From the NCBI GenBank assembly GCA_048938005.1, contig JBHLMQ010000022.1, positions 1 through 24,000 on the forward strand: a stretch of 24,000 nucleotides of DNA, written 5' to 3'. The notes below the pieces were generated by a model. It was not told the origin of the DNA. It did not search any database and saw only the letters and a list, made by a program, of their open reading frames with translations. This stretch comes from Promethearchaeota archaeon (GTDB taxonomy: Archaea > Asgardarchaeota > Lokiarchaeia > Sigyniarchaeales > SOKP01). Below are positions 3,527 to 15,915 of the stretch, one piece after another. How positions within the stretch are numbered: position 1 is the stretch's first letter; each line of letters begins with the position of its first letter. Made by a program: the position numbers and the translations under genes.

Positions 3527-4147
3527 TTATTCATCTGATTTGAGACGATTTAATTCTTTCTCTAACTCGGCTATTTTTTCATCAGAAGCTGCCGTAGGTA
3601 ATGCCGCGCCCATTTCTACTTGAATTTCAGCATCAATTTCACCTAGAACTTCATTTACATCTGCATCGCTGACAGCCGTATCTAATGTAATACTATCTAT
3701 ACCATCTGTTGCGATTTCTGCGGTAACGGCGAAGTCTTCCATATCAACATCAATATTTTTCATGATTTCTGTAAGTTGTGGAATCGACATTTGGGCTTTT
3801 AAGGTTGCGAGAGATTTTGCTATTCCTACCATGATTTCAGATACATCTTTTACAGCATCAGCTTGCTCTAGTTTAAATAATAATCCTTCTAAGTTTGTCC
3901 TGAATCCATCTAAAGCACGAGCATGTTTTTTCGTTTGAAGATAATTTCTTGCATGGAATTTTGAGCCATCCATGTCACCTTGTTTTCGAAGACTCACTGC
4001 CTTATCTCTTGCTATTTTTGCGCTCATTTCCATCTTTTTTGTCTGCCGCATCAATTTTTTATTAAAAACTCTCAATTTAGTTGCTGGACGAACATCTTTT
4101 TTCCTACCTCCTGAAAGCCACTTAGAGATATCTTTTAGAAAACCCAT
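3527..4147 (-). CDS. ESCRT-III subunit, Vps2/Vps24/Vps46 (CHMP1-3)-like, with a C-terminal MIM1-like helix
   Basis: Snf7-family helical hairpin core. 'KQGDMDGSKFHARNYLQTKKHARALDGFRTNLEGLLFKLEQADAVKDVSEIMVGIAKSLATLKAQMSIPQLTEIMKNIDVDMEDFAVTAEIATDGID' aligns closely with human CHMP2 'KQGQMDAVRIMAKDLVRTRRYVRKFVLMRANIQAVSLKIQTLKSNNSMAQAMKGVTKAMGTMNRQLKLPQIQKIMMEFERQAEIMDMKEEMMNDAID'. An acidic C-terminal part ends in 'IAELEKELNRLKSDE'. The track ORF begins at a TTG (4156); I prefer the ATG at 4147, which gives MGFLKD.... Confidence 0.87.
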   Translation of the reverse strand: MGFLKDISKWLSGGRKKDVRPATKLRVFNKKLMRQTKKMEMSAKIARDKAVSLRKQGDMDGSKFHARNYLQTKKHARALDGFRTNLEGLLFKLEQADAVKDVSEIMVGIAKSLATLKAQMSIPQLTEIMKNIDVDMEDFAVTAEIATDGIDSITLDTAVSDADVNEVLGEIDAEIQVEMGAALPTAASDEKIAELEKELNRLKSDE

Positions 4148-4425
4148 ATTTATCAAATCTAATTAGTAATTATATATTATATAAATATTTATTTACTAAT
4201 ATAATTTTTTGGAGACCAGTAATTATCCTCGTTGTTTAAACAGTAAATTTGATTTATGCTAATAAAATTATTATTATTGCAGAAGGATATTAAGAAATTT
4301 CATAGTTATGCAAAATCTTTGTCTCTACTTTTTTACCAACTATAAGTAAATATGATATATTCTCGATAAATATTATTTATATATAATAATTAATACAATA
4401 ATCAAAACAAGAAAAGATGAAATGA
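4148..4425. promoter_or_regulatory. Divergent promoter region between the ESCRT-III and Vps4 genes
   Basis: 278-bp very AT-rich spacer between divergent start codons. It contains ATAAATATTTAT (4181-4192, 34-45 nt upstream of the ESCRT-III ATG), ATAAATATTATTTAT (4366-4380, 46-60 nt upstream of the Vps4 ATG) and a central 10-bp palindrome TGTTTAAACA (4233-4242). Assigning TATA/BRE function is inference only. Confidence 0.4.
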
Positions 4426-5643
4426 ATGTCCTCAGTCGATTCTAAATTATATCAATATGCTGTTAAAACAGCAAAAGAAGCAGTAGCTTTAGATAATCAA
4501 GGAAAGTTAAGACAAGCTATTAATATGTACTCTAGAGCTGCTGAAATCTTGATGCAATTTATGAAATATAATAAAAATCCTCAAATGAGAATGCTATGTC
4601 AAAGAAATATTGAAGAGTATGTTGATCGGGCCAGAATTTTGAAATCACATTTAAGTGGGGTGAGACCAAGGAGAGTAAGAGCTGCTGAAAGACCAAGTGA
4701 GGCACAAGATGCTGGAGCAGATTCTGAAGGAGTTGCTGTCTCATCAGAAGAACAGGAACTTATTGATATGATATCAGGAACAATAGTTACAGAATCACCA
4801 AATGTAAAATGGGATGATATTGCTGGATTACAAAATGTAAAGCAAGCTTTAAGAGAAGCAATCGTTTTACCAATAGTAAAACCAGAATTATTTAAAGGTG
4901 CGAGAAGACCTTGGTCAGGAATATTGCTATTTGGGCCTCCTGGATGTGGTAAGACTTTATTAGCAAAAGCCGCTGCAACTGAATGTAAAGCTACTTTTTT
5001 TAGTGCATCTTCAGCTGATTTATTAAGTAAATGGTTAGGTGAAAGTGAAAAGTTAATTAGTTCATTATTTAAAGTTGCTCGTTTAAAAGCACCTAGTTTA
5101 ATATTTATGGACGAAATAGATTCAGTAGCGACAAAGCGGGGAGAAGGTTCTGAAAGTGGAGGTGAAAGAAGGGTAAAAACGCAACTTTTAAGTGAAATTC
5201 AAGGATTAAAGTCGACTTTTGATAAACCATTATTAGTTTTAGGAGCCACAAACCGTCCTTGGGATATTGATAATGCTATGTTAAGTAGATTTGAAAAAAG
5301 AGTGCAAGTGCCTCTTCCAGATTTAAAGGCTCGAGCAGGAATTTTTAAAATTCATACTGAAGGAGTCAATTCAGCATTAACAGATGAGGATTTTATTGAA
5401 TTAGCTGTAAGGACTGAAGGTTATTCTGGTAGAGATATTGCAAATATCTGTCGTGAAGTGATTATGTTACCTATTCGTGAATTGGATATGAGTGGTCTTT
5501 TAGAAAATTCAGATAAAGAAGTAAAACTTAGAGATATCACATTGAAGGATTTCAAGAAAACACTTAAAAAAGTAAAACCGATGACTCACACGGCATTAAT
5601 GAAAAAATATAATGATTGGGCAGAGGAATTCGGAGAAGTATAA
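4426..5643 (+). CDS. vps4: Vps4-type AAA+ ATPase (N-terminal MIT domain plus a single AAA cassette)
   Basis: 405 aa.
- MIT-like three-helix N-terminus: 'AVKTAKEAVALDNQGKLRQAINMYSRAAEILMQFMKYNKNPQMRMLCQRNIEEYVDRARILKSHL'.
- Ser/Glu-rich linker.
- Walker A GPPGCGKT (nt 4933-4956).
- Walker B 'LIFMDEIDS'.
- Second region of homology 'GATNRPWDIDNAMLSRFEKR'.
- Vps4-type C-terminal helix 'YNDWAEEFGEV'. Confidence 0.93.
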   Translation: MSSVDSKLYQYAVKTAKEAVALDNQGKLRQAINMYSRAAEILMQFMKYNKNPQMRMLCQRNIEEYVDRARILKSHLSGVRPRRVRAAERPSEAQDAGADSEGVAVSSEEQELIDMISGTIVTESPNVKWDDIAGLQNVKQALREAIVLPIVKPELFKGARRPWSGILLFGPPGCGKTLLAKAAATECKATFFSASSADLLSKWLGESEKLISSLFKVARLKAPSLIFMDEIDSVATKRGEGSESGGERRVKTQLLSEIQGLKSTFDKPLLVLGATNRPWDIDNAMLSRFEKRVQVPLPDLKARAGIFKIHTEGVNSALTDEDFIELAVRTEGYSGRDIANICREVIMLPIRELDMSGLLENSDKEVKLRDITLKDFKKTLKKVKPMTHTALMKKYNDWAEEFGEV

Positions 5644-5652
5644 AAATTTTTG

Positions 5653-6555
5653 ATGATTAAAATGGAAAGGCAGAGAGAAAAAACTACAGAAATTCCTAAG
5701 GAAGTCAAAGAGAGAGCTGAAAAAGAGTTAGAGGAATTAAGGAAAGAGCTTGCTAGATTAAGAAAATTAAAGAAAGAAAAAGAACAGTTGGAAATAGAAG
5801 CAGCTCAAAAACAAATCATTAAGGAAGAAGAAATTAAGGCAACTGAGTTAAACTATATAGAAGAACAATTTGATAAACTTGAAGATATATTATCATCCAA
5901 GTTGGGTGAAATTGATCAAAAAGTATACCGCCAACATGCTGATCAGATCGAAGCAGAACTGCAAACCCTTGAAGAAGAAATTATTGGAGAAAAAGGTGTA
6001 ATAGAAAAAAAATTAACTGCTTACGAAAATTTATTGAAAGCTTATCCTTGGCTTAAGGAGGAACGTAAGAAGTTTATGTATACAATGCCAAACAAGAAGA
6101 AAAATAAAACTGATTACGTTTCTTGGAAAGTAGAATGGGCAAAAGTTCTTTTTGATTACGCAAGATTTGCTGTCTTACATATAATTTATATCAGAGAATT
6201 GAATTCTCAAAAGCCATTTTCAAATTTCACAAAACGAGAAGAATACATAAAGGAAATTGCAGAGGAATTAATAAGTCAAAATCAAGCGAAATGGCTCTCA
6301 AAAGAGAAAAAGAGATTAAGAGTATACTGGAAGACTTTAGAAGCTTGGTCAGACGAAATCTACAAATGGTGTTATGAAAATGGGAAAATCGAAACTATTA
6401 TGATATACGAATTACGAGAGGCATCTCAAGAAGATTTTAGTACACTTCCACTAGAAGATCTAGAAGAAATATTTAAAATCCTAGCAAAAAACCAAAGAGC
6501 TAAGGTATTTAAATTAGAAAATGGACAATTAGCATTTAAGATTAAACTGGAATAA
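5653..6555 (+). CDS. ESCRT-II Vps25-like protein (tandem winged helix) with a long N-terminal coiled-coil extension
   Basis: The C-terminal ~170 aa align along their length with human VPS25. 'YPWLKE..FMYTMPNKKKNKTDYVSWKVEWAKVLFDYARFAV' corresponds to 'WPWQYRFPPFFTLQPNVDTRQKQLAAWCSLVLSFCRLHK'. 'LRVYWKTLEAWSDEIYKWCYENGKIETIMIYELREASQEDFSTLPLEDLEEIFKILAKNQRAKVFKLENGQLAFK' corresponds to 'FLIMWRRPEEWGKLIYQWVSRSGQNNSVFTLYELTNGEDTEDEEFHGLDEATLLRALQALQQEHKAEIITVSDGRGVKF'. The N-terminal ~130 aa are E/K-rich heptad-like coiled coil. The gene starts 10 nt after the Vps4 stop, so it is probably co-transcribed. The ATG at 5653 or 5662 is preferred over the TTG at 5650. Confidence 0.78.
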   Translation: MIKMERQREKTTEIPKEVKERAEKELEELRKELARLRKLKKEKEQLEIEAAQKQIIKEEEIKATELNYIEEQFDKLEDILSSKLGEIDQKVYRQHADQIEAELQTLEEEIIGEKGVIEKKLTAYENLLKAYPWLKEERKKFMYTMPNKKKNKTDYVSWKVEWAKVLFDYARFAVLHIIYIRELNSQKPFSNFTKREEYIKEIAEELISQNQAKWLSKEKKRLRVYWKTLEAWSDEIYKWCYENGKIETIMIYELREASQEDFSTLPLEDLEEIFKILAKNQRAKVFKLENGQLAFKIKLE

Positions 6556-6570
6556 TATAAAATTCTTATT

Positions 6571-7284
6571 TTACAAAGAAGGGAAATACCATTGTTTCCC
6601 TGTTAGGATATTTTCCCTAAATTTAGCTACCCCACTCTTTTCGAGAGATTCTAAGGCTCGAAGAGCACGATCTTGCGACCATTCTAAATTAGCGCACACA
6701 TCTTCTAAAGTAAGAACTCCTTTCTCTTTAGCTAAATCAACAACTTTTGCTTCATCGCCTGTATATTGAATAGGAAAAAACCGTACAATAATAGCTCCTG
6801 AATCTAATTGGATAATATCTTCAATAACTCTTGTCTTTTTCAACATTTTCAACGCCTTTTCAACATCTTTTATTTCGACATTCCCTTTCAAAATACCCGT
6901 ATTTACTAGTTCAAACACTTCTGATAATGGGATTATGCCTCCAGTTTCTTCTTTACTCATCAAAACTCTCTGATATGCTAACATCCCTAACTTCTCGTGA
7001 TCAATTTTGGAGAATTTCCTCAATACATCATGCTCTGTAATTTGTTCAGTAATAATTTTTGAAGATGGAATGTTATATTTTTTTTGCAATTCTTTTACTT
7101 CTTCTCTTAATTCTGGTGTTAAAGCTAATAAAACTCCATGTTTCTTAGCTAATTCTCTAAGATTATCTTTTGTAAATTTTTCAACTGCAGCTTTTGCTTG
7201 TATATCTTTCATTTTCAGTTCTGCTGCCTTCTTTTTCATCGCTTCTTTTAAATCAATCTCATCTTCTATCTTTCGAATGCCCAT
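6571..7284 (-). CDS. ESCRT-II Vps22/Vps36 (EAP30/SNF8)-like protein
   Basis: 237 aa, aligning over the full length with human SNF8/EAP30.
- 'FTKDNLRELAKKHGVLLALTPELREEVKELQKKYNIP' corresponds to 'FKTNLEEFASKHKQEIRKNPEFRVQFQDMCATIGVDP'.
- 'ETGGIIPLSEVFELVN' corresponds to 'RNGGLITLEELHQQV'.
- 'VVDLAKEKGVLTLEDVCANLEWSQDRALRALESLEKSGVAKF...GKQWYFPSL' corresponds to 'VLQLAEKNGYVTVSEIKASLKWETERARQVLEHLLKEGLAWLD...EAHYWLPALF'. Confidence 0.82.
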   Translation of the reverse strand: MGIRKIEDEIDLKEAMKKKAAELKMKDIQAKAAVEKFTKDNLRELAKKHGVLLALTPELREEVKELQKKYNIPSSKIITEQITEHDVLRKFSKIDHEKLGMLAYQRVLMSKEETGGIIPLSEVFELVNTGILKGNVEIKDVEKALKMLKKTRVIEDIIQLDSGAIIVRFFPIQYTGDEAKVVDLAKEKGVLTLEDVCANLEWSQDRALRALESLEKSGVAKFRENILTGKQWYFPSL

Positions 7285-7363: not shown

Positions 7364-7942
7364 ATGAGCAATATTTTGAGTTTTAGACAGATCAACGAAA
7401 TTGAAAAAGAAATAATGATTACTTCTCTTTCAAAGATCTCTTCAGAATTTTCACAGATTATTGAGAATTATAGAACATTTTTATATATTTCAATAGAAAG
7501 GGCAGTATCTAAAAACAAATTTCCCAATATTTTTTTAATTTCAAAAGATCAAGTTAGGTTATTACATTCTTTAAACAACAATAAAATTATCTCAGCCGGT
7601 TTATATTTTGGATTTATCAAGAAAGGTAATTTTTATTTAAGCTTAGAAGGTGCGGAATTTCTATATAAACAAGATATTTTTTCTGATTTTAAAAGACTTT
7701 ATATTAACGAGAAAGGAGAAAAGTCTATTCTATATGGAAATAATATTTTAAAAAAAATGGTTATCAAACCACCTTCAAATCTCCAGAAACAAGATTTTTT
7801 ATTAGTCTTTAACGAAATTGATGAAATAATAGCTATTGCCCAATCTAAAGTTGAGAATATAAAGTTCAAACAGTTAAAATCTAATGAAATTATTGCTGTT
7901 AACTTAAGTGATAAAGGACTTTATTTAAGGAAAAAGCAATAA
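7364..7942 (+). CDS. nip7: NIP7-like ribosome-biogenesis / PUA-domain RNA-binding protein
   Basis: 'KIISAGLYFGFIKKGNFYLSLEGAEFL', 'GEKSILYGNNILKKMV', 'FLLVFNEIDEIIAIAQSK' and 'NLSDKGLYLRK' parallel human NIP7 '[28 protein letters not shown]', 'AEQSFLYGNHVLKSGL', 'VVVYSMADIPLGFGVAAKS' and 'HQADIGEYVR'. The track ORF starts at a TTG (7316) and adds a hydrophobic low-complexity leader. The ATG at 7364 (MSNILSF...) is preferred. Confidence 0.75.
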   Translation: MSNILSFRQINEIEKEIMITSLSKISSEFSQIIENYRTFLYISIERAVSKNKFPNIFLISKDQVRLLHSLNNNKIISAGLYFGFIKKGNFYLSLEGAEFLYKQDIFSDFKRLYINEKGEKSILYGNNILKKMVIKPPSNLQKQDFLLVFNEIDEIIAIAQSKVENIKFKQLKSNEIIAVNLSDKGLYLRKKQ

Positions 7943-8210: not shown

Positions 8211-9539
8211 TTAATTATAATGCTCTCCATTTTTTTCGTAGTTTTTATTTAATAACTTAATCTCTTCATCCGAAATTTGTTTCATCTCATCTTCTAGCTC
8301 ATCATAGAGTTTTATAAACTCAGATGGGAAGGAGAGAGGAGATTTTATCAATTCAGCTTTAATAGATTGAAATTGTTCTTCATCTGTAAATATTTTTTTG
8401 AGTTTATTTTCCAATTCTAATGGAATTTTCAAAAATCTACCCGTTAATAATAGAGGTTGTTTTTTACTTTTTATAATTTTGTAAGGAAAATTGGAAAAAT
8501 ATTTTTCAATCAATTCAAATGCGCTTTCATATTGAGACATATCTTTAACCGATTTTTTTAATTCTCGCTCAAATTTTTTCTCGAAATCTTGTGTAAAATT
8601 CAAAACAGACTCACGTAACAATTTGGAAGATTTAGATGCGACTAAACCCACTGTAATTGATTTTGATTCATTCAAAATCAAAATACCTTCTTCCAAATTG
8701 ATATCTAATAAACCCCCAATATTCATTAGTTCTTCGCTCATGAGTTGAACAGCATTTAAAAATCCTGTAAATATATCTTCATCGATGTTTAATTCAGTCC
8801 AATCATGATCGTATATTGGATAACCTTCTCTATCTTTTACAACTAATCTATATATGGTGAATGGTAATATGTATAGCAATTTTGGTTCTTTTATAATAGC
8901 AATGATAAAGATTAGAATTCCTAAACCCATCATAATATCTGCATATACAATAAATATTGGCTCCAAATAAAAAAATATATACACGATAAGAGAAGCTGGT
9001 AGAGCAAGGCAAATACCTAGGAATAATATTAAGGCTTCTTTTTTAATTAAAAAAGGAGCATTTAACCAAGTTTTAAAACCCCAATAAAAAAGGATAACCA
9101 CTCCAGAAATTTGAAACAAATCACCCATTATCGCTAAAATACCGGCCCAATTTACATTAAAATATCCAGATTCGAATACAATTACAGCAGTTCCTGGTAA
9201 AAATATTGAATAACATGCTATTGAACCTAAAATACAGATTATGATTAAACCTACGGATTTAAAAGATTCTGAAATAACATAATTCACTCCTATTACTAGA
9301 AAAATTATGGCAAAAACAACGAAAATTAAGCTAATTTTTGATAATATTTGGTTCACTAAAAGAATTGTTAGGCAATCAATATAAAAATATATGGCAATTA
9401 AAAGGATACCTAGTCTAATAAAAAACAACGATTTTATTTTTTTTGTTTTAGGTTCAAAATAAGTTAATGCTGAAGCTATTAGTGTTATTGTCGCAACATA
9501 CAAATCCACTATTGCTTCAGGTGCCCAGTTTAATTCCAT
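8211..9539 (-). CDS. Polytopic membrane protein with a cytoplasmic longin/roadblock-like domain and a helical acidic tail
   Basis: 442 aa. Residues ~1-218 are successive hydrophobic helices. Residues ~225-330 (nt ~8550-8867), 'IYRLVVKDREGYPIYDHDWTELNIDEDIFTGFLNAVQLMSEELMNIGGLLDINLEEGILILNESKSITVGLVASKSSKLLRESVLNFTQDFEKKFEREL', show the beta-beta-alpha-beta-beta-beta-alpha pattern and the 'GFL.A...F' signature of longin/sybindin/roadblock-type domains. The domain assignment comes from pattern recognition only. Confidence 0.6.
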   Translation of the reverse strand: MELNWAPEAIVDLYVATITLIASALTYFEPKTKKIKSLFFIRLGILLIAIYFYIDCLTILLVNQILSKISLIFVVFAIIFLVIGVNYVISESFKSVGLIIICILGSIACYSIFLPGTAVIVFESGYFNVNWAGILAIMGDLFQISGVVILFYWGFKTWLNAPFLIKKEALILFLGICLALPASLIVYIFFYLEPIFIVYADIMMGLGILIFIIAIIKEPKLLYILPFTIYRLVVKDREGYPIYDHDWTELNIDEDIFTGFLNAVQLMSEELMNIGGLLDINLEEGILILNESKSITVGLVASKSSKLLRESVLNFTQDFEKKFERELKKSVKDMSQYESAFELIEKYFSNFPYKIIKSKKQPLLLTGRFLKIPLELENKLKKIFTDEEQFQSIKAELIKSPLSFPSEFIKLYDELEDEMKQISDEEIKLLNKNYEKNGEHYN

Positions 9540-9594
9540 GTTTCCTATTTACTCCTCTATTAATATATTAGTATTTCTATTTTAATATTTAAAT

Positions 9595-10314
9595 TCATTC
9601 AACTGTATTTGTTTTTTTAGTTAATATTCGAACAATAAAATCTTTCTTATTTGGATTTATATAAATCAAGTTATCTAATTCTTCTTTTACTAATAAAATT
9701 TTATGTTCAATTAAACCATTGATTCGATAATACACATTTTCTCTTTTTTCATTGATTAACTTATAAATTTCTGATTTTTTAAGTGATTCTTGCTCAGTTA
9801 TTAAATTAACAATTTTCATATTAATTTTGTCTCCTAACAAAAAATTAAGAATTCCCATTTCCCTATCCATTTCATATGGAAGAAAAACAGAGTAGTTCCC
9901 AACTTTTATTTTTTTAATATATTCGAATTTCAATAGCATCTCTAAATGCCAGATTAATTGCCCCGAACTTACTAAATTGTCTGTTTGATTATCTTTTAAA
10001 ATTTTTCTAATTAAAGAGTAATGAACTGCTCCATTTTTTTTAATGAAGCGAAAGATATTATATCTCAATCTATTTGAAAGTACAGTTTCTTTAGAAAATT
10101 TGGAGCCTTCTATTAATATCTTTTTATTAATCAAAAAATGGATGATAGATATTAATCCGCTTTTCGGTATTTTTAATCGTTTTTTTGCTAAATTATATAA
10201 ATTCTCTAGGTTGAGAATTTTATTTTTATTCATAATTTCCTCAGCTATCTCCAAAACTCTCTTCACACTTGGATGTTCTAATCCAATTGGTGTAGTTAGA
10301 ATCTGAGTTTTCAT
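9595..10314 (-). CDS. Multi-winged-helix (2-3 wHTH repeats) protein, putative DNA-binding regulator
   Basis: 239 aa with three successive ~65-aa segments that look like winged-helix domains. Examples: 'RLRYNIFRFIKKNGAVHYSLIRKILKDNQTDNLVSSGQLIWHLEMLLKFEYIKKIKVGNYSVFLP' and 'MKIVNLITEQESLKKSEIYKLINEKRENVYYRINGLIEHKILLVKEE'. It lies 55 nt upstream of the membrane-longin gene on the same strand. Confidence 0.6.
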   Translation of the reverse strand: MKTQILTTPIGLEHPSVKRVLEIAEEIMNKNKILNLENLYNLAKKRLKIPKSGLISIIHFLINKKILIEGSKFSKETVLSNRLRYNIFRFIKKNGAVHYSLIRKILKDNQTDNLVSSGQLIWHLEMLLKFEYIKKIKVGNYSVFLPYEMDREMGILNFLLGDKINMKIVNLITEQESLKKSEIYKLINEKRENVYYRINGLIEHKILLVKEELDNLIYINPNKKDFIVRILTKKTNTVE

Positions 10315-10331
10315 ATTAGAGATAACCTATT

Positions 10332-10718
10332 TTATTCTATGACGTAAATCGAATTATAATGCTCCTTATCAGATATCATATATAATTCTTTTTTTAAATT
10401 GTTGAATAAGCATATAAATTCTGAAAATGTTCCCTTTGGGGCTTTCAGAATTTCAAGTTTTACTAATTTCCTAACTTTGGCATCTTTAATAGATTTATCA
10501 AGAATTCTATAAAGATTGTTCCTTAATAAATATAGAAATAAATTATCCTTAAAAATATATATTTTGAATATAGGTCTTAAAATTTTTGGTAATGTTAATA
10601 ACTTGTAATTTTTTCTGTTTAATTTTTGAATCCTACCTTTAGATTTTGAGATTAAATCCTCTGTTCTTCTTAAAGTATTTGATTTCCTATTACTGCCTTT
10701 TTTTATTGAATTCTGCAT
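10332..10718 (-). CDS. Small basic hypothetical protein
   Basis: 128-aa ORF with a Lys/Arg-rich N-terminus (KKGSNRKSNTLRRTEDLISKSKGRIQKLNRKNYK). It ends 17 nt before the wHTH gene on the same strand. No recognisable motif, so the coding status rests on ORF length and operon context. Confidence 0.45.
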   Translation of the reverse strand: MQNSIKKGSNRKSNTLRRTEDLISKSKGRIQKLNRKNYKLLTLPKILRPIFKIYIFKDNLFLYLLRNNLYRILDKSIKDAKVRKLVKLEILKAPKGTFSEFICLFNNLKKELYMISDKEHYNSIYVIE

Positions 10719-12792: not shown

Positions 12793-12800
12793 ATCACCTC
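12793..12800 (-). promoter_or_regulatory. Shine-Dalgarno ribosome-binding site overlapping the upstream stop codon
   Basis: The minus strand reads aTTTGAGGTGATttagaaatATG. GAGGTGAT is an 8-nt complement of the 16S rRNA 3' end and sits 8 nt before the ATG at 12784. The TGA stop of the HD gene (12801-12799) overlaps the first two SD bases. Confidence 0.55.
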
Positions 12801-14280
12801 AAATAATTATGATATCATGTGCTATGATATTTTCCTTTTTTTCCTTCTTATGTTTAATTATTTTAATGTCATGAAGGTTAATAGTAGTTTTAGGAAATAG
12901 GTTTCCACTATTTAACCTTCCAAATGTTTTTTTCTTCTCATTTGAAAATAGATTGAAATTAAATTTCATTAGATCTTTAGCTTGTTCATTTCTAAATTGC
13001 ATTAACCATGAAAACTCGTCTAAAGTTAGTAATAGCTCATCTAAGAGAGTGACTTTTTCCAATTCAGTTGTAAAATATGTATCGCGTATTTGAATTGGAA
13101 TGGGTCTACCCCACTCTTGTAGTTCATCTATTAGCATTAAGAAAAACGCCAATGGTTGCTCATCAAACAAATAATCTTTAAGATTTGCTTTAAAATTATG
13201 CAAAGCTATGGCTCGTGCTGCTAGAATATATCCAATATATTCATCATTTTTTTTAATTTCTTCTGGTGTTCCAAGTCCCTTCAGTAGAGAAAGTGCAGAA
13301 ATAACTCCATGATCTAATTCTACAGGGCTCTTGTAATTATATTCAGGATGACCATCTGGTTGATTCAAGAAAATTTGAGAATTTTGAGAAGGAAGTTCCT
13401 GAAATTTAAATCCAGCGCCTTCTCTTATTAAAATACGAGCTTCTTTAGAAAGTCCTTCTTCTATAATCGTCAGATATTTTTCTTGCTCACCTTTCCAAGC
13501 TAAATTGATTTCAAAGGGAATAAATTCTAAATCTATAGTAGGATAGCATTTTAGGATTTGGTTAACAAGTGAATAGTTAACAGCGGTTGTCATTTTACCT
13601 AATGGATAACCAATATCATGGAGTAGCCCTACAATCCACCAAAATTTGTCTTTAAGAAGATTTCTGTCTAAGTCTGTTAATTCAGAAATAATTCCTTCTA
13701 AGGAACCTTGACCAAGGTCTTGTTCTAATAAGAAATCTCCTAATACTGCCACACGAAGTGCATGTTCAGTATGATCTCTATAATACTTTTTTACACTTGT
13801 ACTATAAAGAAAAGCTTCTAGGTCTGGTAAAGCACGTATTAAATACAACAATCCCTTTGATTCGATACCTCTTTCTTTAGATACATCATAAAGGGCCGAT
13901 GACAAATTTTTTTTCTTTCCAGTTAGAAAATCCAATCCAGGAATTACGTCTAATTTTTCAATCCCCTGAAGAGATTGTTCAATTCCTTTAGTTATTGGTT
14001 TTTTAACACTTTCAATGATATCCATTGAAAAACTCGAGAATTTTTTCCCAAAACCCCCTAATTTGGCAAATTCTTTTTGGGCTGAAGCTAACTCCTTATC
14101 TAAGTCCTGAAAGGAGATTTTATCTTTTTCTTTTTTAATTTGTTCAAGAACTTCTGGAGGTGCTTCTTCAAGTGATCTTTCGACTGATTCTAACAGATTG
14201 TTTACCCAATTAGAAAAACTATTGCTTTGGGAGGATATCCTGTTTAAGATCCAATCATCATTTATATGGAAATCTGGCAA
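12799..14280 (-). CDS. HD-domain metal-dependent phosphohydrolase with long N- and C-terminal extensions; start uncertain
   Basis: 493-aa ORF. HD signature 'YYRDHTEHALRVAVLGDFLL ... WWIVGLLHDIGYPLGK ... ELDHGVISALSL ... ARAIALHNF'. The track start is a TTG at 14280 and the first in-frame ATG is ~85 codons downstream. The intervening sequence looks protein-like, so the true start is unresolved. Confidence 0.7.
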   Translation of the reverse strand: MPDFHINDDWILNRISSQSNSFSNWVNNLLESVERSLEEAPPEVLEQIKKEKDKISFQDLDKELASAQKEFAKLGGFGKKFSSFSMDIIESVKKPITKGIEQSLQGIEKLDVIPGLDFLTGKKKNLSSALYDVSKERGIESKGLLYLIRALPDLEAFLYSTSVKKYYRDHTEHALRVAVLGDFLLEQDLGQGSLEGIISELTDLDRNLLKDKFWWIVGLLHDIGYPLGKMTTAVNYSLVNQILKCYPTIDLEFIPFEINLAWKGEQEKYLTIIEEGLSKEARILIREGAGFKFQELPSQNSQIFLNQPDGHPEYNYKSPVELDHGVISALSLLKGLGTPEEIKKNDEYIGYILAARAIALHNFKANLKDYLFDEQPLAFFLMLIDELQEWGRPIPIQIRDTYFTTELEKVTLLDELLLTLDEFSWLMQFRNEQAKDLMKFNFNLFSNEKKKTFGRLNSGNLFPKTTINLHDIKIIKHKKEKKENIIAHDIIII

Positions 14281-14541: not shown

Positions 14542-15915
14542 ATGGTTTATTTTGAGATTGATCAGTTAGGATTTAATTGCGGAAAAATTAAAGAGAAATG
14601 TTCAAAGTATCCTAAGTTTTGCATGGATTGTGTTAAAAATAAATTAAAACAACTTGGTTTTGAAATAGATTCTAATTTGAAAGTATTTGAAGTTGATTCT
14701 TATGAACGTCGCCTTCAGATGGAACGCGAATTAATTTGGCGAAAATTTTTAGATGTTCTAAATATAAGACATGTTATAATTATTGATAAGGATTCTGGAT
14801 TAACTCTTTTAAACTATCCTGTATCTGGTGAAGAGATAAACGCAGATTTATTGAGCGGTTTCATTCAAGCAAATATCACCTTTTCTGAATCACATAAAGG
14901 TTCATACAAGAGTTCACCCTCAGCAAGAAATCATAAATTTTATGAATTCCAATACCAAAATTTCAATATACTTTTAAGGAATGGAGAATTCATTCGGCTT
15001 TGTTTAATGCTTGATCATAAAGCTTCTGAAAATATGAGAACTCAAGTTCTCCAATTCATTCCTGAATTTGAAGAAATTTTTAATCAAGAGCTACAAAATT
15101 TTAGAAATGCTGGAATGTTTTATTACAAGAATATGGTTGATTATATCATTGATATACTTGAAATTAAGTTAGTTTTTCCGATGAAATTGGCTCATTCAAT
15201 CACTCCTAAAGATTTAGAAAGTATTAATCAAAATCAACTTCAAAAAGCGATATATAATATTGCTAAGGAATTACTCATTTCAAAATCATTCTTTTTTATT
15301 AATAATCTACTCAACCGAGTGAAAAAAATTGTTAATCTAGATGCAAATGTTATTTTATTTCAGATATATCAGTTAGTAGAGAATAAAACCATTATTCCAA
15401 CAAAGTTAGAAGCAGCTGTAAGTAATATCGAGATGATTCAAGAAGCTAGGGACGAAAAGATTGCTAAATATAAGCCAATTTCTTCTATTATTATAACAGA
15501 TTCAGATTTGGAAAATTTAAAAGAAAAAGTAGAAGATATGGATGAGAGTTCAGCAAATAAGATGATAAAGGAATTGATCAAGAAAGGAAAAGCAGCTGAA
15601 AAGTCTCTGGCGTATCAGGTTGGCGAACATGAATATAAAAAAGCCTTATTTCTAGCAAGGGAATTTAATTTGAAAACAGAAATGGATAGAATTTCAAAAT
15701 TGTTATTAGATTTAGATAAACAAGTTAAACAAATAGAGTTAGATTTTACTTTGAAAGCAGGAGAAAATGCCGAAAAAAGTGGTGATAAGATAAATAGTAT
15801 TCACTATTATCAAAAAGCATTAAAGATACTTGAAAGTTTTTTAATTTATAATATTTCTGATTCTCGAATTAAAAAATTGAAGAAGAAAATTATTAAACTC
15901 CGTGAAGAGATATAA
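14542..15915 (+). CDS. Multidomain protein: Cys4 N-terminus, longin/roadblock-like domain, winged-helix-like segment, C-terminal TPR/MIT-like helical repeats
   Basis: 457 aa.
- N-terminus: 'FNCGKIKEKCSKYPKFCMDCVK' (C-x6-C-x6-C-x2-C).
- Residues ~74-186 (nt ~14761-15099): 'IRHVIIIDKDSGLTLLNYPVSGEEINADLLSGFIQANITFSES...YEFQYQNFNILLRNGEFIRLCLMLDHKASENMRTQVLQFIPEFEEIFNQEL', the same domain pattern as in the 442-aa membrane protein.
- Residues ~338-457 (nt ~15553-15912): two helical repeats, 'GKAAEKSLAYQVGEHEYKKALFLAREFN' and 'LKAGENAEKSGDKINSIHYYQKALKILESFLIYNISDSRIKKLKKKIIKLREEI'. The second resembles a MIT/TPR three-helix unit. Confidence 0.6.
   Translation: MVYFEIDQLGFNCGKIKEKCSKYPKFCMDCVKNKLKQLGFEIDSNLKVFEVDSYERRLQMERELIWRKFLDVLNIRHVIIIDKDSGLTLLNYPVSGEEINADLLSGFIQANITFSESHKGSYKSSPSARNHKFYEFQYQNFNILLRNGEFIRLCLMLDHKASENMRTQVLQFIPEFEEIFNQELQNFRNAGMFYYKNMVDYIIDILEIKLVFPMKLAHSITPKDLESINQNQLQKAIYNIAKELLISKSFFFINNLLNRVKKIVNLDANVILFQIYQLVENKTIIPTKLEAAVSNIEMIQEARDEKIAKYKPISSIIITDSDLENLKEKVEDMDESSANKMIKELIKKGKAAEKSLAYQVGEHEYKKALFLAREFNLKTEMDRISKLLLDLDKQVKQIELDFTLKAGENAEKSGDKINSIHYYQKALKILESFLIYNISDSRIKKLKKKIIKLREEI

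Follow-up and report, generated by a model that had tools for sequence, protein, structure and literature searches.

Does the locus considered here encode a eukaryote-like machinery for membrane remodelling, or a variant of the Cdv cell-division machinery of TACK archaea? It occupies positions 3527 to 7284 of a stretch of 24,000 nucleotides (nt) at the start of contig JBHLMQ010000022.1 of a Promethearchaeota archaeon, below called the window, and comprises four adjacent genes resembling components of ESCRT (the endosomal sorting complexes that are required for transport). Our analysis points with high confidence to the core ESCRT operon pair of an Asgard archaeon of the class Lokiarchaeia, in which an A-type ESCRT-III gene diverges from vps4-vps25 and a vps22 gene converges on them. 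Directly established are the presence of the genes, their domain architecture, their catalytic and binding motifs, the tight coupling of vps4 and vps25, and the conservation of sequence, gene order and intergenic motifs across Lokiarchaeia. There is no evidence contrary to the ESCRT identification.

The ESCRT cluster of Lokiarchaeum GC14_75 (Lokiarchaeota) was reportedly presented by Spang in 2015. The cluster of the window is already known: it is the canonical lokiarchaeial locus, arranged alike in dozens of genomes already in print, and orthologues that are ~80–85% identical have already been examined by experiment. As one more copy of this canonical locus, the window brings no new principle. 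The preliminary description, which was made from the letters of the window, had rightly cautioned that such clusters are in print (PMC9192718, PMC10936438, PMC7240154). Asgard ESCRT clusters are central evidence for membrane remodelling by ESCRT-II, ESCRT-III and Vps4 in the archaeal ancestor of eukaryotes.

The four ESCRT genes and their products

The preliminary description placed four open reading frames (ORFs) at 3527-4156 (minus strand), 4426-5643 (plus), 5650-6555 (plus) and 6571-7284 (minus), in exact agreement with the ORF listing. It assigned their products to ESCRT-III (CHMP2-type), to Vps4 (MIT, AAA and C-terminal helix), to VPS25 and to SNF8/EAP30, and proposed a profile check. We judged family membership by the curated gathering cut-offs of Pfam, and by the equivalog cut-offs of NCBIfam for CdvB and CdvC; all four assignments pass the Pfam cut-offs, far beyond what chance would produce. 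The further claim that the proteins align over their full length with eukaryotic counterparts holds for the EAP30 protein, which covers profile positions 1-214 of 219, but not for the Vps25-like protein, of which only residues ~106/130-299 match Vps25.

The ESCRT-IIIA gene (Vps2/24/46 or CHMP1-3 class; 3527-4147, minus strand) encodes 206 amino acids (aa) from a conserved ATG, the length that gene callers also report. Mechanically, its ORF runs to a TTG at 4156. The true start is likely the ATG at 4147, because in the alignment of orthologues the N-terminus MGFLKD is conserved, and the residues upstream of it are variable and often have no start codon. The protein matches Pfam Snf7 with E 3.3e-16 (59.9 bits, cut-off 27.3), residues 26-192 covering profile positions 4-169 of 171. 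Among structures in the PDB, CHMP2A ranks first (45.1 bits, 9.8e-11), ahead of CHMP1B (33.8 bits) and of an Asgard ESCRT-IIIB of the Vps20/32/60 type (9fn1_U, 30.1 bits), and the same sequence search gave no match to Snf7, CHMP4 or CHMP6 at E<0.01. By this similarity ranking and by its C-terminus, which resembles an MIT-interacting motif of type 1 (MIM1), the protein is classed as A-type (CHMP1/2/3-like). This is in line with the CHMP2-like character noted in the preliminary description, and with a published tree in which the Loki Vps2/24/46 protein groups with its eukaryotic homologues (PMC7240154).

Both ends of the ESCRT-III protein carry recognizable motifs. The N-terminal motif reads MGFLKDISKWL, and the C-terminal end KIAELEKELNRLKSDE is a leucine helix with MIM1-like spacing. 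The motif KIAELEKELNRLK has LxxxLxxLK spacing, and no other part of the protein is as conserved (0.96 identity across 34 orthologues). Leucine-rich MIM1-like motifs have been described in Asgard Vps2/24/46 proteins (PMC7240154). We regard the helix as a putative MIM1-type ligand of the MIT domain of Vps4.

The vps4 gene (4426-5643, plus strand) encodes an MIT domain (residues 10-74), a linker, a single AAA cassette (166-297), a lid (320-355) and a C-terminal helix (364-403). In Pfam these score 1.7e-13 (50.9 bits) for MIT, 3.4e-40 (138 bits) for AAA, 2.1e-11 (43.6 bits) for AAA_lid_3 and 7.3e-6 (26.3 bits, cut-off 21.3) for Vps4_C, so that the combination of MIT, one AAA cassette and the Vps4_C helix that marks a Vps4 is complete. 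Among 37 orthologues there is no variation in Walker A (GPPGCGKT), in Walker B (LIFMDEID) or in pore loop 1 (SKWLGESEK), and the arginines of pore loop 2 (KRGEG...ERR) are present in the alignment as well. The best single-domain matches in the PDB are yeast Vps4 (9e-96, 324 bits) and human VPS4B (1.4e-94, 320 bits). The isolated MIT domain scores higher against that of yeast Vps4 (34.6 bits) than against the MIT domains of crenarchaeal CdvC (25.6, 23.3 and 20.8 bits). The orthologue of Lokiarchaeum is an active ATPase whose MIT domain binds both Vps2/24/46 and Vps20/32/60 and which partially rescues a yeast vps4-null mutant (PMC7240154).

The vps25-like gene, for an ESCRT-II subunit, follows on the same strand (5662-6555, plus; 297 aa, with alternative starts at 5653 and 5650). 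Its start candidates, TTG 5650, ATG 5653 and ATG 5662, lie 6-18 nt past the vps4 stop; most likely one of the two ATG codons is used, giving 300 or 297 aa, and databases hold both versions. The match to Pfam ESCRT-II/Vps25 (PF05871) has an E-value of 2.2e-13 (51.1 bits, cut-off 27) over residues 160-260. In the PDB, the closest entries are 9uyv, an archaeal 'ESCRT-II complex subunit' (1.5e-47, residues 106-299), and 7pb9, a Vps25 with tandem winged helices (2.7e-23), followed by human VPS25 (1.7e-7) and yeast Vps25 (6.5e-5). Entry 9uyv gives no organism, and is probably VPS25 of Ca. Prometheoarchaeum syntrophicum MK-D1.

These matches fall in the C-terminal ~170 aa, a tandem winged-helix core (~130-297). 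The N-terminal ~125 aa (5662-6040) form an extension rich in E, K, L and I, whose degree of conservation (0.70-0.84) is close to that of the core (0.77-0.92). AlphaFold2 (AF2) places helices at residues 13-49, 64-78 and 86-127 of the extension, with a predicted local distance difference test score (pLDDT) of 73-89. Mean pLDDT of the whole model is 62 and that of the winged-helix core ~50, so that only the extension helices were used; the core is poorly modelled because the alignment is shallow, its members being at least 77% identical throughout. Subdomains at the N-terminus of Asgard Vps25 have been reported before, some of them steadiness-box-like (PMC10936438). The extension could be a coiled-coil or steadiness-box-like arm that stands in for the missing Vps36 or ESCRT-I contacts.

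The vps22-like gene (6571-7284, minus strand) encodes the second ESCRT-II subunit, a 237-aa member of the EAP30 family, and converges on vps25 with 15 nt between the stop codons. It matches Pfam EAP30 with 4.7e-14 (53.1 bits, cut-off 26.8) over residues 1-219, i.e. practically the full profile, and in the PDB it is nearer to Vps22 (SNF8 1.7e-11, yeast Vps22 6e-9) than to VPS36 (4e-4). The Pfam and PDB searches revealed no GLUE/PH, Zn-finger or steadiness-box extension, which leaves a plain EAP30 protein. Across 40 orthologues its identity is 83-95%. The preliminary description considered ESCRT-II homologues to be confined to eukaryotes and Asgard archaea. This holds for the sequence families, but not for distant double-winged-helix analogues, which have been reported from ESCRT systems of other archaea (PMC10936438).

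The locus shares with the eukaryotic ESCRT-II/III-Vps4 system its Pfam families, domain order, putative MIT-MIM1 logic, AAA motifs, pore loop and pore-loop-2 arginines. It differs from eukaryotes in that the window has no Vps36 subunit with GLUE/PH domain, has a single ESCRT-III gene of A-type, carries a coiled-coil-like N-terminal extension on Vps25, and keeps its genes clustered in operons. The cultured strain MK-D1 is similar in having an N-terminal extension on VPS25 and a VPS4 without the insertion of the human protein (bioRxiv 10.1101/2025.11.01.685982). The MK-D1 preprint calls the VPS25 extension 'unstructured', whereas that of the window has three long AF2 helices and is conserved like the core. 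A further difference is the VPS36-like paralogue of MK-D1, which contains an OB fold and has no equivalent in the window.

Several observations weigh against reading the locus as a complete ESCRT system of eukaryotic type. One is the structure of the ATPase. The beta-domain of Vps4, which binds Vta1, is a eukaryotic feature. It is absent here: where yeast Vps4 has ~36 residues (~276-312), the window protein has a stretch of 7 (query fragment 89-96), and the beta-domain insertion of mouse VPS4B is likewise missing from all archaeal representatives that we aligned. The protein is therefore not a eukaryotic-type Vps4 sensu stricto, which leaves its membership of the Asgard Vps4 proteins unaffected. 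The arginine fingers differ as well. In yeast Vps4, R288 and R289 both serve as arginine fingers (PMC5413351). An ungapped alignment with full-length yeast Vps4 puts Ser at the position of R288, and only the equivalent of R289 is Arg; the segment at 5263-5289 (Vps4 residues ~280-288) reads AMLSRFEKR against AIRRRFERR in yeast, with Leu at the position of R287. All 37 lokiarchaeial orthologues compared have this Leu-Ser-Arg, as does the Loki's Castle contig. The related Vps4 of Lokiarchaeum is reportedly active all the same (PMC7240154). Among other archaeal representatives, RRR occurs in two that carry the names of Asgard metagenome-assembled genomes (MAGs), and RSR and LRR in two of unknown source. 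Our literature search found no paper that joins Asgard, Vps4 and 'arginine finger'.

Another point of this kind is gene content. Neither Pfam nor a paralogue search found genes for ESCRT-IIIB (the direct partner of Vps25), ESCRT-I or ubiquitin in the window, and the paralogue search found no second ESCRT-III, Vps22, Vps25 or Vps4. Unlike Odinarchaeum and Heimdallarchaeia, where a single locus holds the complete ubiquitin-ESCRT pathway, the window has no Pfam match to Vps23/UEV, Vps28, the steadiness box, ubiquitin or ESCRT-IIIB. In Lokiarchaeota, the genes that the window lacks occupy a region of their own, and the ubiquitin/ESCRT-I genes are kept apart from the ESCRT genes (PMC9192718).

Gene order and intergenic region among Lokiarchaeia

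The preliminary description regarded the arrangement of the four genes, with its PfkB kinase and NIP7 flanks, as specific to this contig. Our results contradict this. A scan of one genome per GTDB species gave 41 loci, with which we compared the window proteins by tblastn. The order PfkB (minus), ESCRT-III (minus), Vps4 (plus), Vps25 (plus), Vps22 (minus), NIP7 (plus), RsmB (minus) and CYTH (plus) recurs in essentially every locus that is long enough, among them CP070805 and CP070831, both of which were submitted as entire chromosomes. The NIP7 gene of the window probably starts at 7364. The same order and flanks are found in the Loki's Castle contigs, whose proteins are 80-86% identical to those of the window. 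The arrangement is therefore the standard lokiarchaeial one. This stable block with its flanks makes a useful marker for binning, and also for annotation, since database records still name the gene products 'hypothetical protein'.

Published clusters fit this picture to different degrees. The cluster of Lokiarchaeum GC14_75 and other Lokiarchaeota agrees with the window in its four genes, in their order and orientation, and in the PfkB and NIP7-RsmB-CYTH flanks (PMC9192718, PMC7240154). The window order also agrees with the report that Lokiarchaeota have two separate regions, in which Vps25 is linked closest to ESCRT-III and Vps4 (PMC9192718). It differs slightly from an Asgard-wide generalisation, in which ESCRT-III is co-directed with vps4-vps25 and vps22 lies beside vps23/vps28 (PMC10936438). 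Compared to the window, the Loki's Castle contigs have an IS605-type OrfB/TnpB gene, with a Cas12f-like TNB domain, between vps25 and vps22 (7517-8794 in L045 and 6176-7012 in L047), an insertion that the window lacks. Conversely, the window has ~90 nt more before vps4 and a variable three-gene cassette after NIP7.

The taxonomic placement is consistent with the Asgard-type locus of the preliminary description: the check that it proposed classes the contig as Promethearchaeota/Lokiarchaeia, Promethearchaeota being the name that NCBI uses for a phylum in the Asgard kingdom Promethearchaeati. Databases contain 549 homologues of the Vps25-like protein, and the 120 that rank highest are 77-100% identical. 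Most named entries among these 120, Loki_b32 and one record from Loki's Castle included, are labelled Lokiarchaeota, Lokiarchaeia or Promethearchaeota, while a minority is filed under other Asgard phylum names though equally similar. A 15-kb MAG contig of GCA_975963255.1 carries an identical Vps4 protein with the same neighbours. Near-identical MAGs, with 80-90% protein identity and the same synteny, are filed as Hodarchaeota, Hermodarchaeota, Thorarchaeota, Odinarchaeota and Heimdallarchaeota. These conflicting labels look unreliable, since the loci are clearly lokiarchaeial.

Conservation extends into the divergent intergenic region between ESCRT-IIIA and vps4 (4148-4425, 278 nt). An alignment of 32 orthologous regions contains blocks that are at least 90% conserved. 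On the ESCRT-III side, a TATA-like element ATATAAAT lies at ~4179-4186, 32-40 nt upstream of the gene's ATG; its minus-strand reading is TTTATAT. A 14-nt motif TTTTTTGGAGACCA, conserved across related loci, lies at 4205-4218, ~60-70 nt upstream of that ATG. The GGAGACCA motif occurs in one copy per locus and stays beside ESCRT-III in Loki_b32, where an insertion separates vps4. For these two reasons it is probably part of the ESCRT-III promoter region. The motif GTAAATTTGATTTAT occurs twice, first at 4243-4257 and again at 4346-4360. Elements of the GTAAATTTGATATAT type are conserved on the vps4 side of the spacer and are duplicated in the window, where the ~90 extra nt upstream of vps4 carry a second GTAAAT...ATAT element. 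A scan for promoters and terminators of bacterial type was uninformative, since the host is an archaeon, and an Rfam scan of the window detected no RNA family.

Proposed mechanism and alternative explanations

We infer the protein-protein contacts, the order of assembly and the cellular process of the locus from what is known of related systems. Based on orthologues and eukaryotic homologues, a Vps22 dimer with Vps25 arms would form an ESCRT-II-like complex. Vps25 would then bring a B-type ESCRT-III, encoded elsewhere in the genome, to the membrane, and the B-type polymer would recruit the A-type ESCRT-III of the locus, which would favour curved membrane and constrict it into tubes. A Vps4 hexamer may bind the MIM1-like C-terminal helix of ESCRT-IIIA via its MIT domain and thread the protein through its pore (KWLGES); ATP-driven disassembly or turnover of the polymer would lead to membrane remodelling or scission. 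Several steps have counterparts in published experiments. Yeast two-hybrid assays showed that Loki Vps22 self-interacts and that Loki Vps25 binds ESCRT-IIIB (PMC9192718). Asgard ESCRT-IIIA prefers curvature and tubulates membranes; it is recruited by ESCRT-IIIB, whose own assembly takes place on flat membrane (PMC11804906). When placed in human cells, ESCRT-II, ESCRT-III and VPS4 of MK-D1 localise to ESCRT sites (bioRxiv 10.1101/2025.11.01.685982).

An alternative explanation might be that the same protein families do another job, mainly cytokinesis or the scission of protrusions and extracellular vesicles, independent of ubiquitin and of cargo sorting by ESCRT-I. This is a possibility that we take seriously while considering it the less probable option. 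It would fit the locus, in which the Pfam and paralogue searches found neither a ubiquitin nor an ESCRT-I gene, as well as the separation of the ubiquitin and ESCRT regions in Lokiarchaeota (PMC9192718) and the protrusions and vesicles of cultured Lokiarchaeota, which have no endomembranes (PMC11804906). However, yeast two-hybrid assays linked Vps22 of Loki to ESCRT-I proteins (Vps28, steadiness box), and ubiquitin to UEV proteins, which favours a connected ubiquitin-ESCRT pathway (PMC9192718).

It is very unlikely that the two proteins with winged helices act as DNA-binding regulators and are ESCRT-II in appearance only, with ESCRT-III and Vps4 as the sole functional pair. Winged-helix folds are common among archaeal transcription factors, and in the EAP30 protein the winged helix at the C-terminus has a weak match to TrmB (E 0.0085). 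Yet the EAP30 match is full-length and above the cut-off, and the alignment with SNF8 spans both winged helices as well as the N-terminal helices. In addition, the Vps25 core matches solved structures of Asgard Vps25 (1e-47 and 1e-23), vps25 begins only 6-18 nt past vps4, and interactions of orthologues with ESCRT-IIIB are in print (PMC9192718).

We consider it slightly less probable still that the genes represent TACK-like Cdv cell-division machinery (CdvB/CdvC) rather than eukaryote-like ESCRT, the alternative raised at the outset. There is a true likeness: crenarchaeal Cdv systems have a homologous pair of an ESCRT-III-like protein and an MIT-AAA ATPase, and the ATPase is similar in length. 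The best NCBIfam name for our ATPase is CdvC, with 281 bits and a full-length alignment; like CdvC it has no beta-domain, and its C-terminal part is collinear with that of A. hospitalis CdvC. Nevertheless, the equivalog scores are far under their cut-offs, with 281 bits against 650 for CdvC and 14.9 against 370 for CdvB. Mouse VPS4B scores 243 bits on the same CdvC model, which places the window ATPase about as far from CdvC as eukaryotic Vps4 is. In the PDB, eukaryotic Vps4 reaches 324 bits, whereas full-length A. hospitalis CdvC stays below 288 bits, outside the 60 best matches.

The neighbours and partners of the ATPase argue in the same direction. Genes for Vps25 and Vps22, which Cdv systems lack, are adjacent, and the preliminary description was correct that no CdvA-like gene is present, as none occurs among the 23 ORFs of the window that were scanned. 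In contrast to CdvB proteins, which are without it (PMC7240154), the ESCRT-III protein has a MIM1-like motif rather than only a MIM2, and it has no C-terminal winged helix.

An exhaustive HMMER search with Vps4 against 1.84 billion cluster representatives gave a similar picture. Its best 150 matches are dominated by multi-AAA proteins of the Cdc48 type, with ~10 single-AAA proteins among the matches listed. The latter include a Lokiarchaeia-like representative (68% identical), two clusters with Asgard MAG names (Heimdall/Hod and 'Asgardarchaeia') and three of unknown or unspecified source; next come VPS4B of mouse (46% identity, 320.5 bits) and a VPS4 of a plant. No single-AAA match listed among these 150 is labelled CdvC, and the seven that were tested all score below the CdvC cut-off. 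This is consistent with published trees, in which Asgard Vps4 is close to eukaryotic Vps4 and not to TACK CdvC (PMC7240154, PMC10936438, PMC11804906). On these sequence comparisons, the Cdv explanation appears largely refuted.

Eukaryotic contamination or an assembly chimera, for which only the eukaryote-like families themselves would speak, is wholly implausible: synteny refutes it, with the same order in 41 independent genomes (CP070805 and CP070831 among them), and furthermore the G+C content is low throughout the window (0.24-0.34), the flanking genes are archaeal, and identity to the eukaryotic homologues is just ~46%.

Neighbouring genes

A conserved protein of 457 aa is encoded at 14542-15915 (plus strand), ~7 kb from the ESCRT genes. 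It has 407 database homologues and is syntenic with the ESCRT block in at least six related loci. Four invariant cysteines at its N-terminus suggest a Zn ribbon. They are followed by a Roadblock/longin fold at ~77-190, for which Foldseek finds AP2 sigma, MglB, LAMTOR and Roadblock3 of MK-D1, and by a confidently predicted helical domain at the C-terminus (330-457). Of 52 orthologues, 27 score as Pfam MIT in this C-terminal domain, with a best E of 5.5e-6, whereas the copy of the window has only E 0.07. The MIT assignment is tentative, because a profile of the protein matched only a generic motif in the PDB, a 23-residue consensus-TPR. The protein could be an ESCRT-III-binding adaptor that links small-GTPase signalling to ESCRT-III via an MIT-MIM contact. 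No paper joining Asgard, Roadblock and the MIT domain came up in our literature search.

Lokiarchaeia may run a lineage-specific variant of ESCRT, in which the peculiarities of the locus, i.e. the Vps25 extension, the Vps4 with a single arginine finger and the Roadblock-MIT/TPR-like coupling, would be functional rather than neutral. We put this forward as a speculative idea that is rather unlikely to be correct. In the literature searched, we found no discussion of a role for the Vps25 extension, of the single Vps4 arginine finger or of Roadblock-MIT coupling.

Between NIP7 and RsmB, a cassette of three genes (8211-10718, minus strand) is present in 15 and absent in 12 of the loci that span both flanking genes. 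Its proteins have no assignment in Pfam, NCBIfam or the PDB. One is a multi-pass membrane protein of 442 aa, whose cytoplasmic domain shows a weak resemblance (hhalign P 0.0017) to the Roadblock region in the protein of 457 aa. The others are a protein of 239 aa, which resembles three winged helices in tandem, and an ORF of 128 aa. Local hhalign comparison of the 239-aa protein with the Vps22 and Vps25 alignments gave no similarity, but this test is insensitive with such shallow alignments, since it missed the link between Vps22 and Vps25 too; a PDB search with the protein was also empty.

Further downstream, a protein of 493 aa is encoded at 12799-14280 (minus strand). It has a marginal match to the HD domain (E 0.057), and its synteny is kept among the related loci at 60-80% identity.

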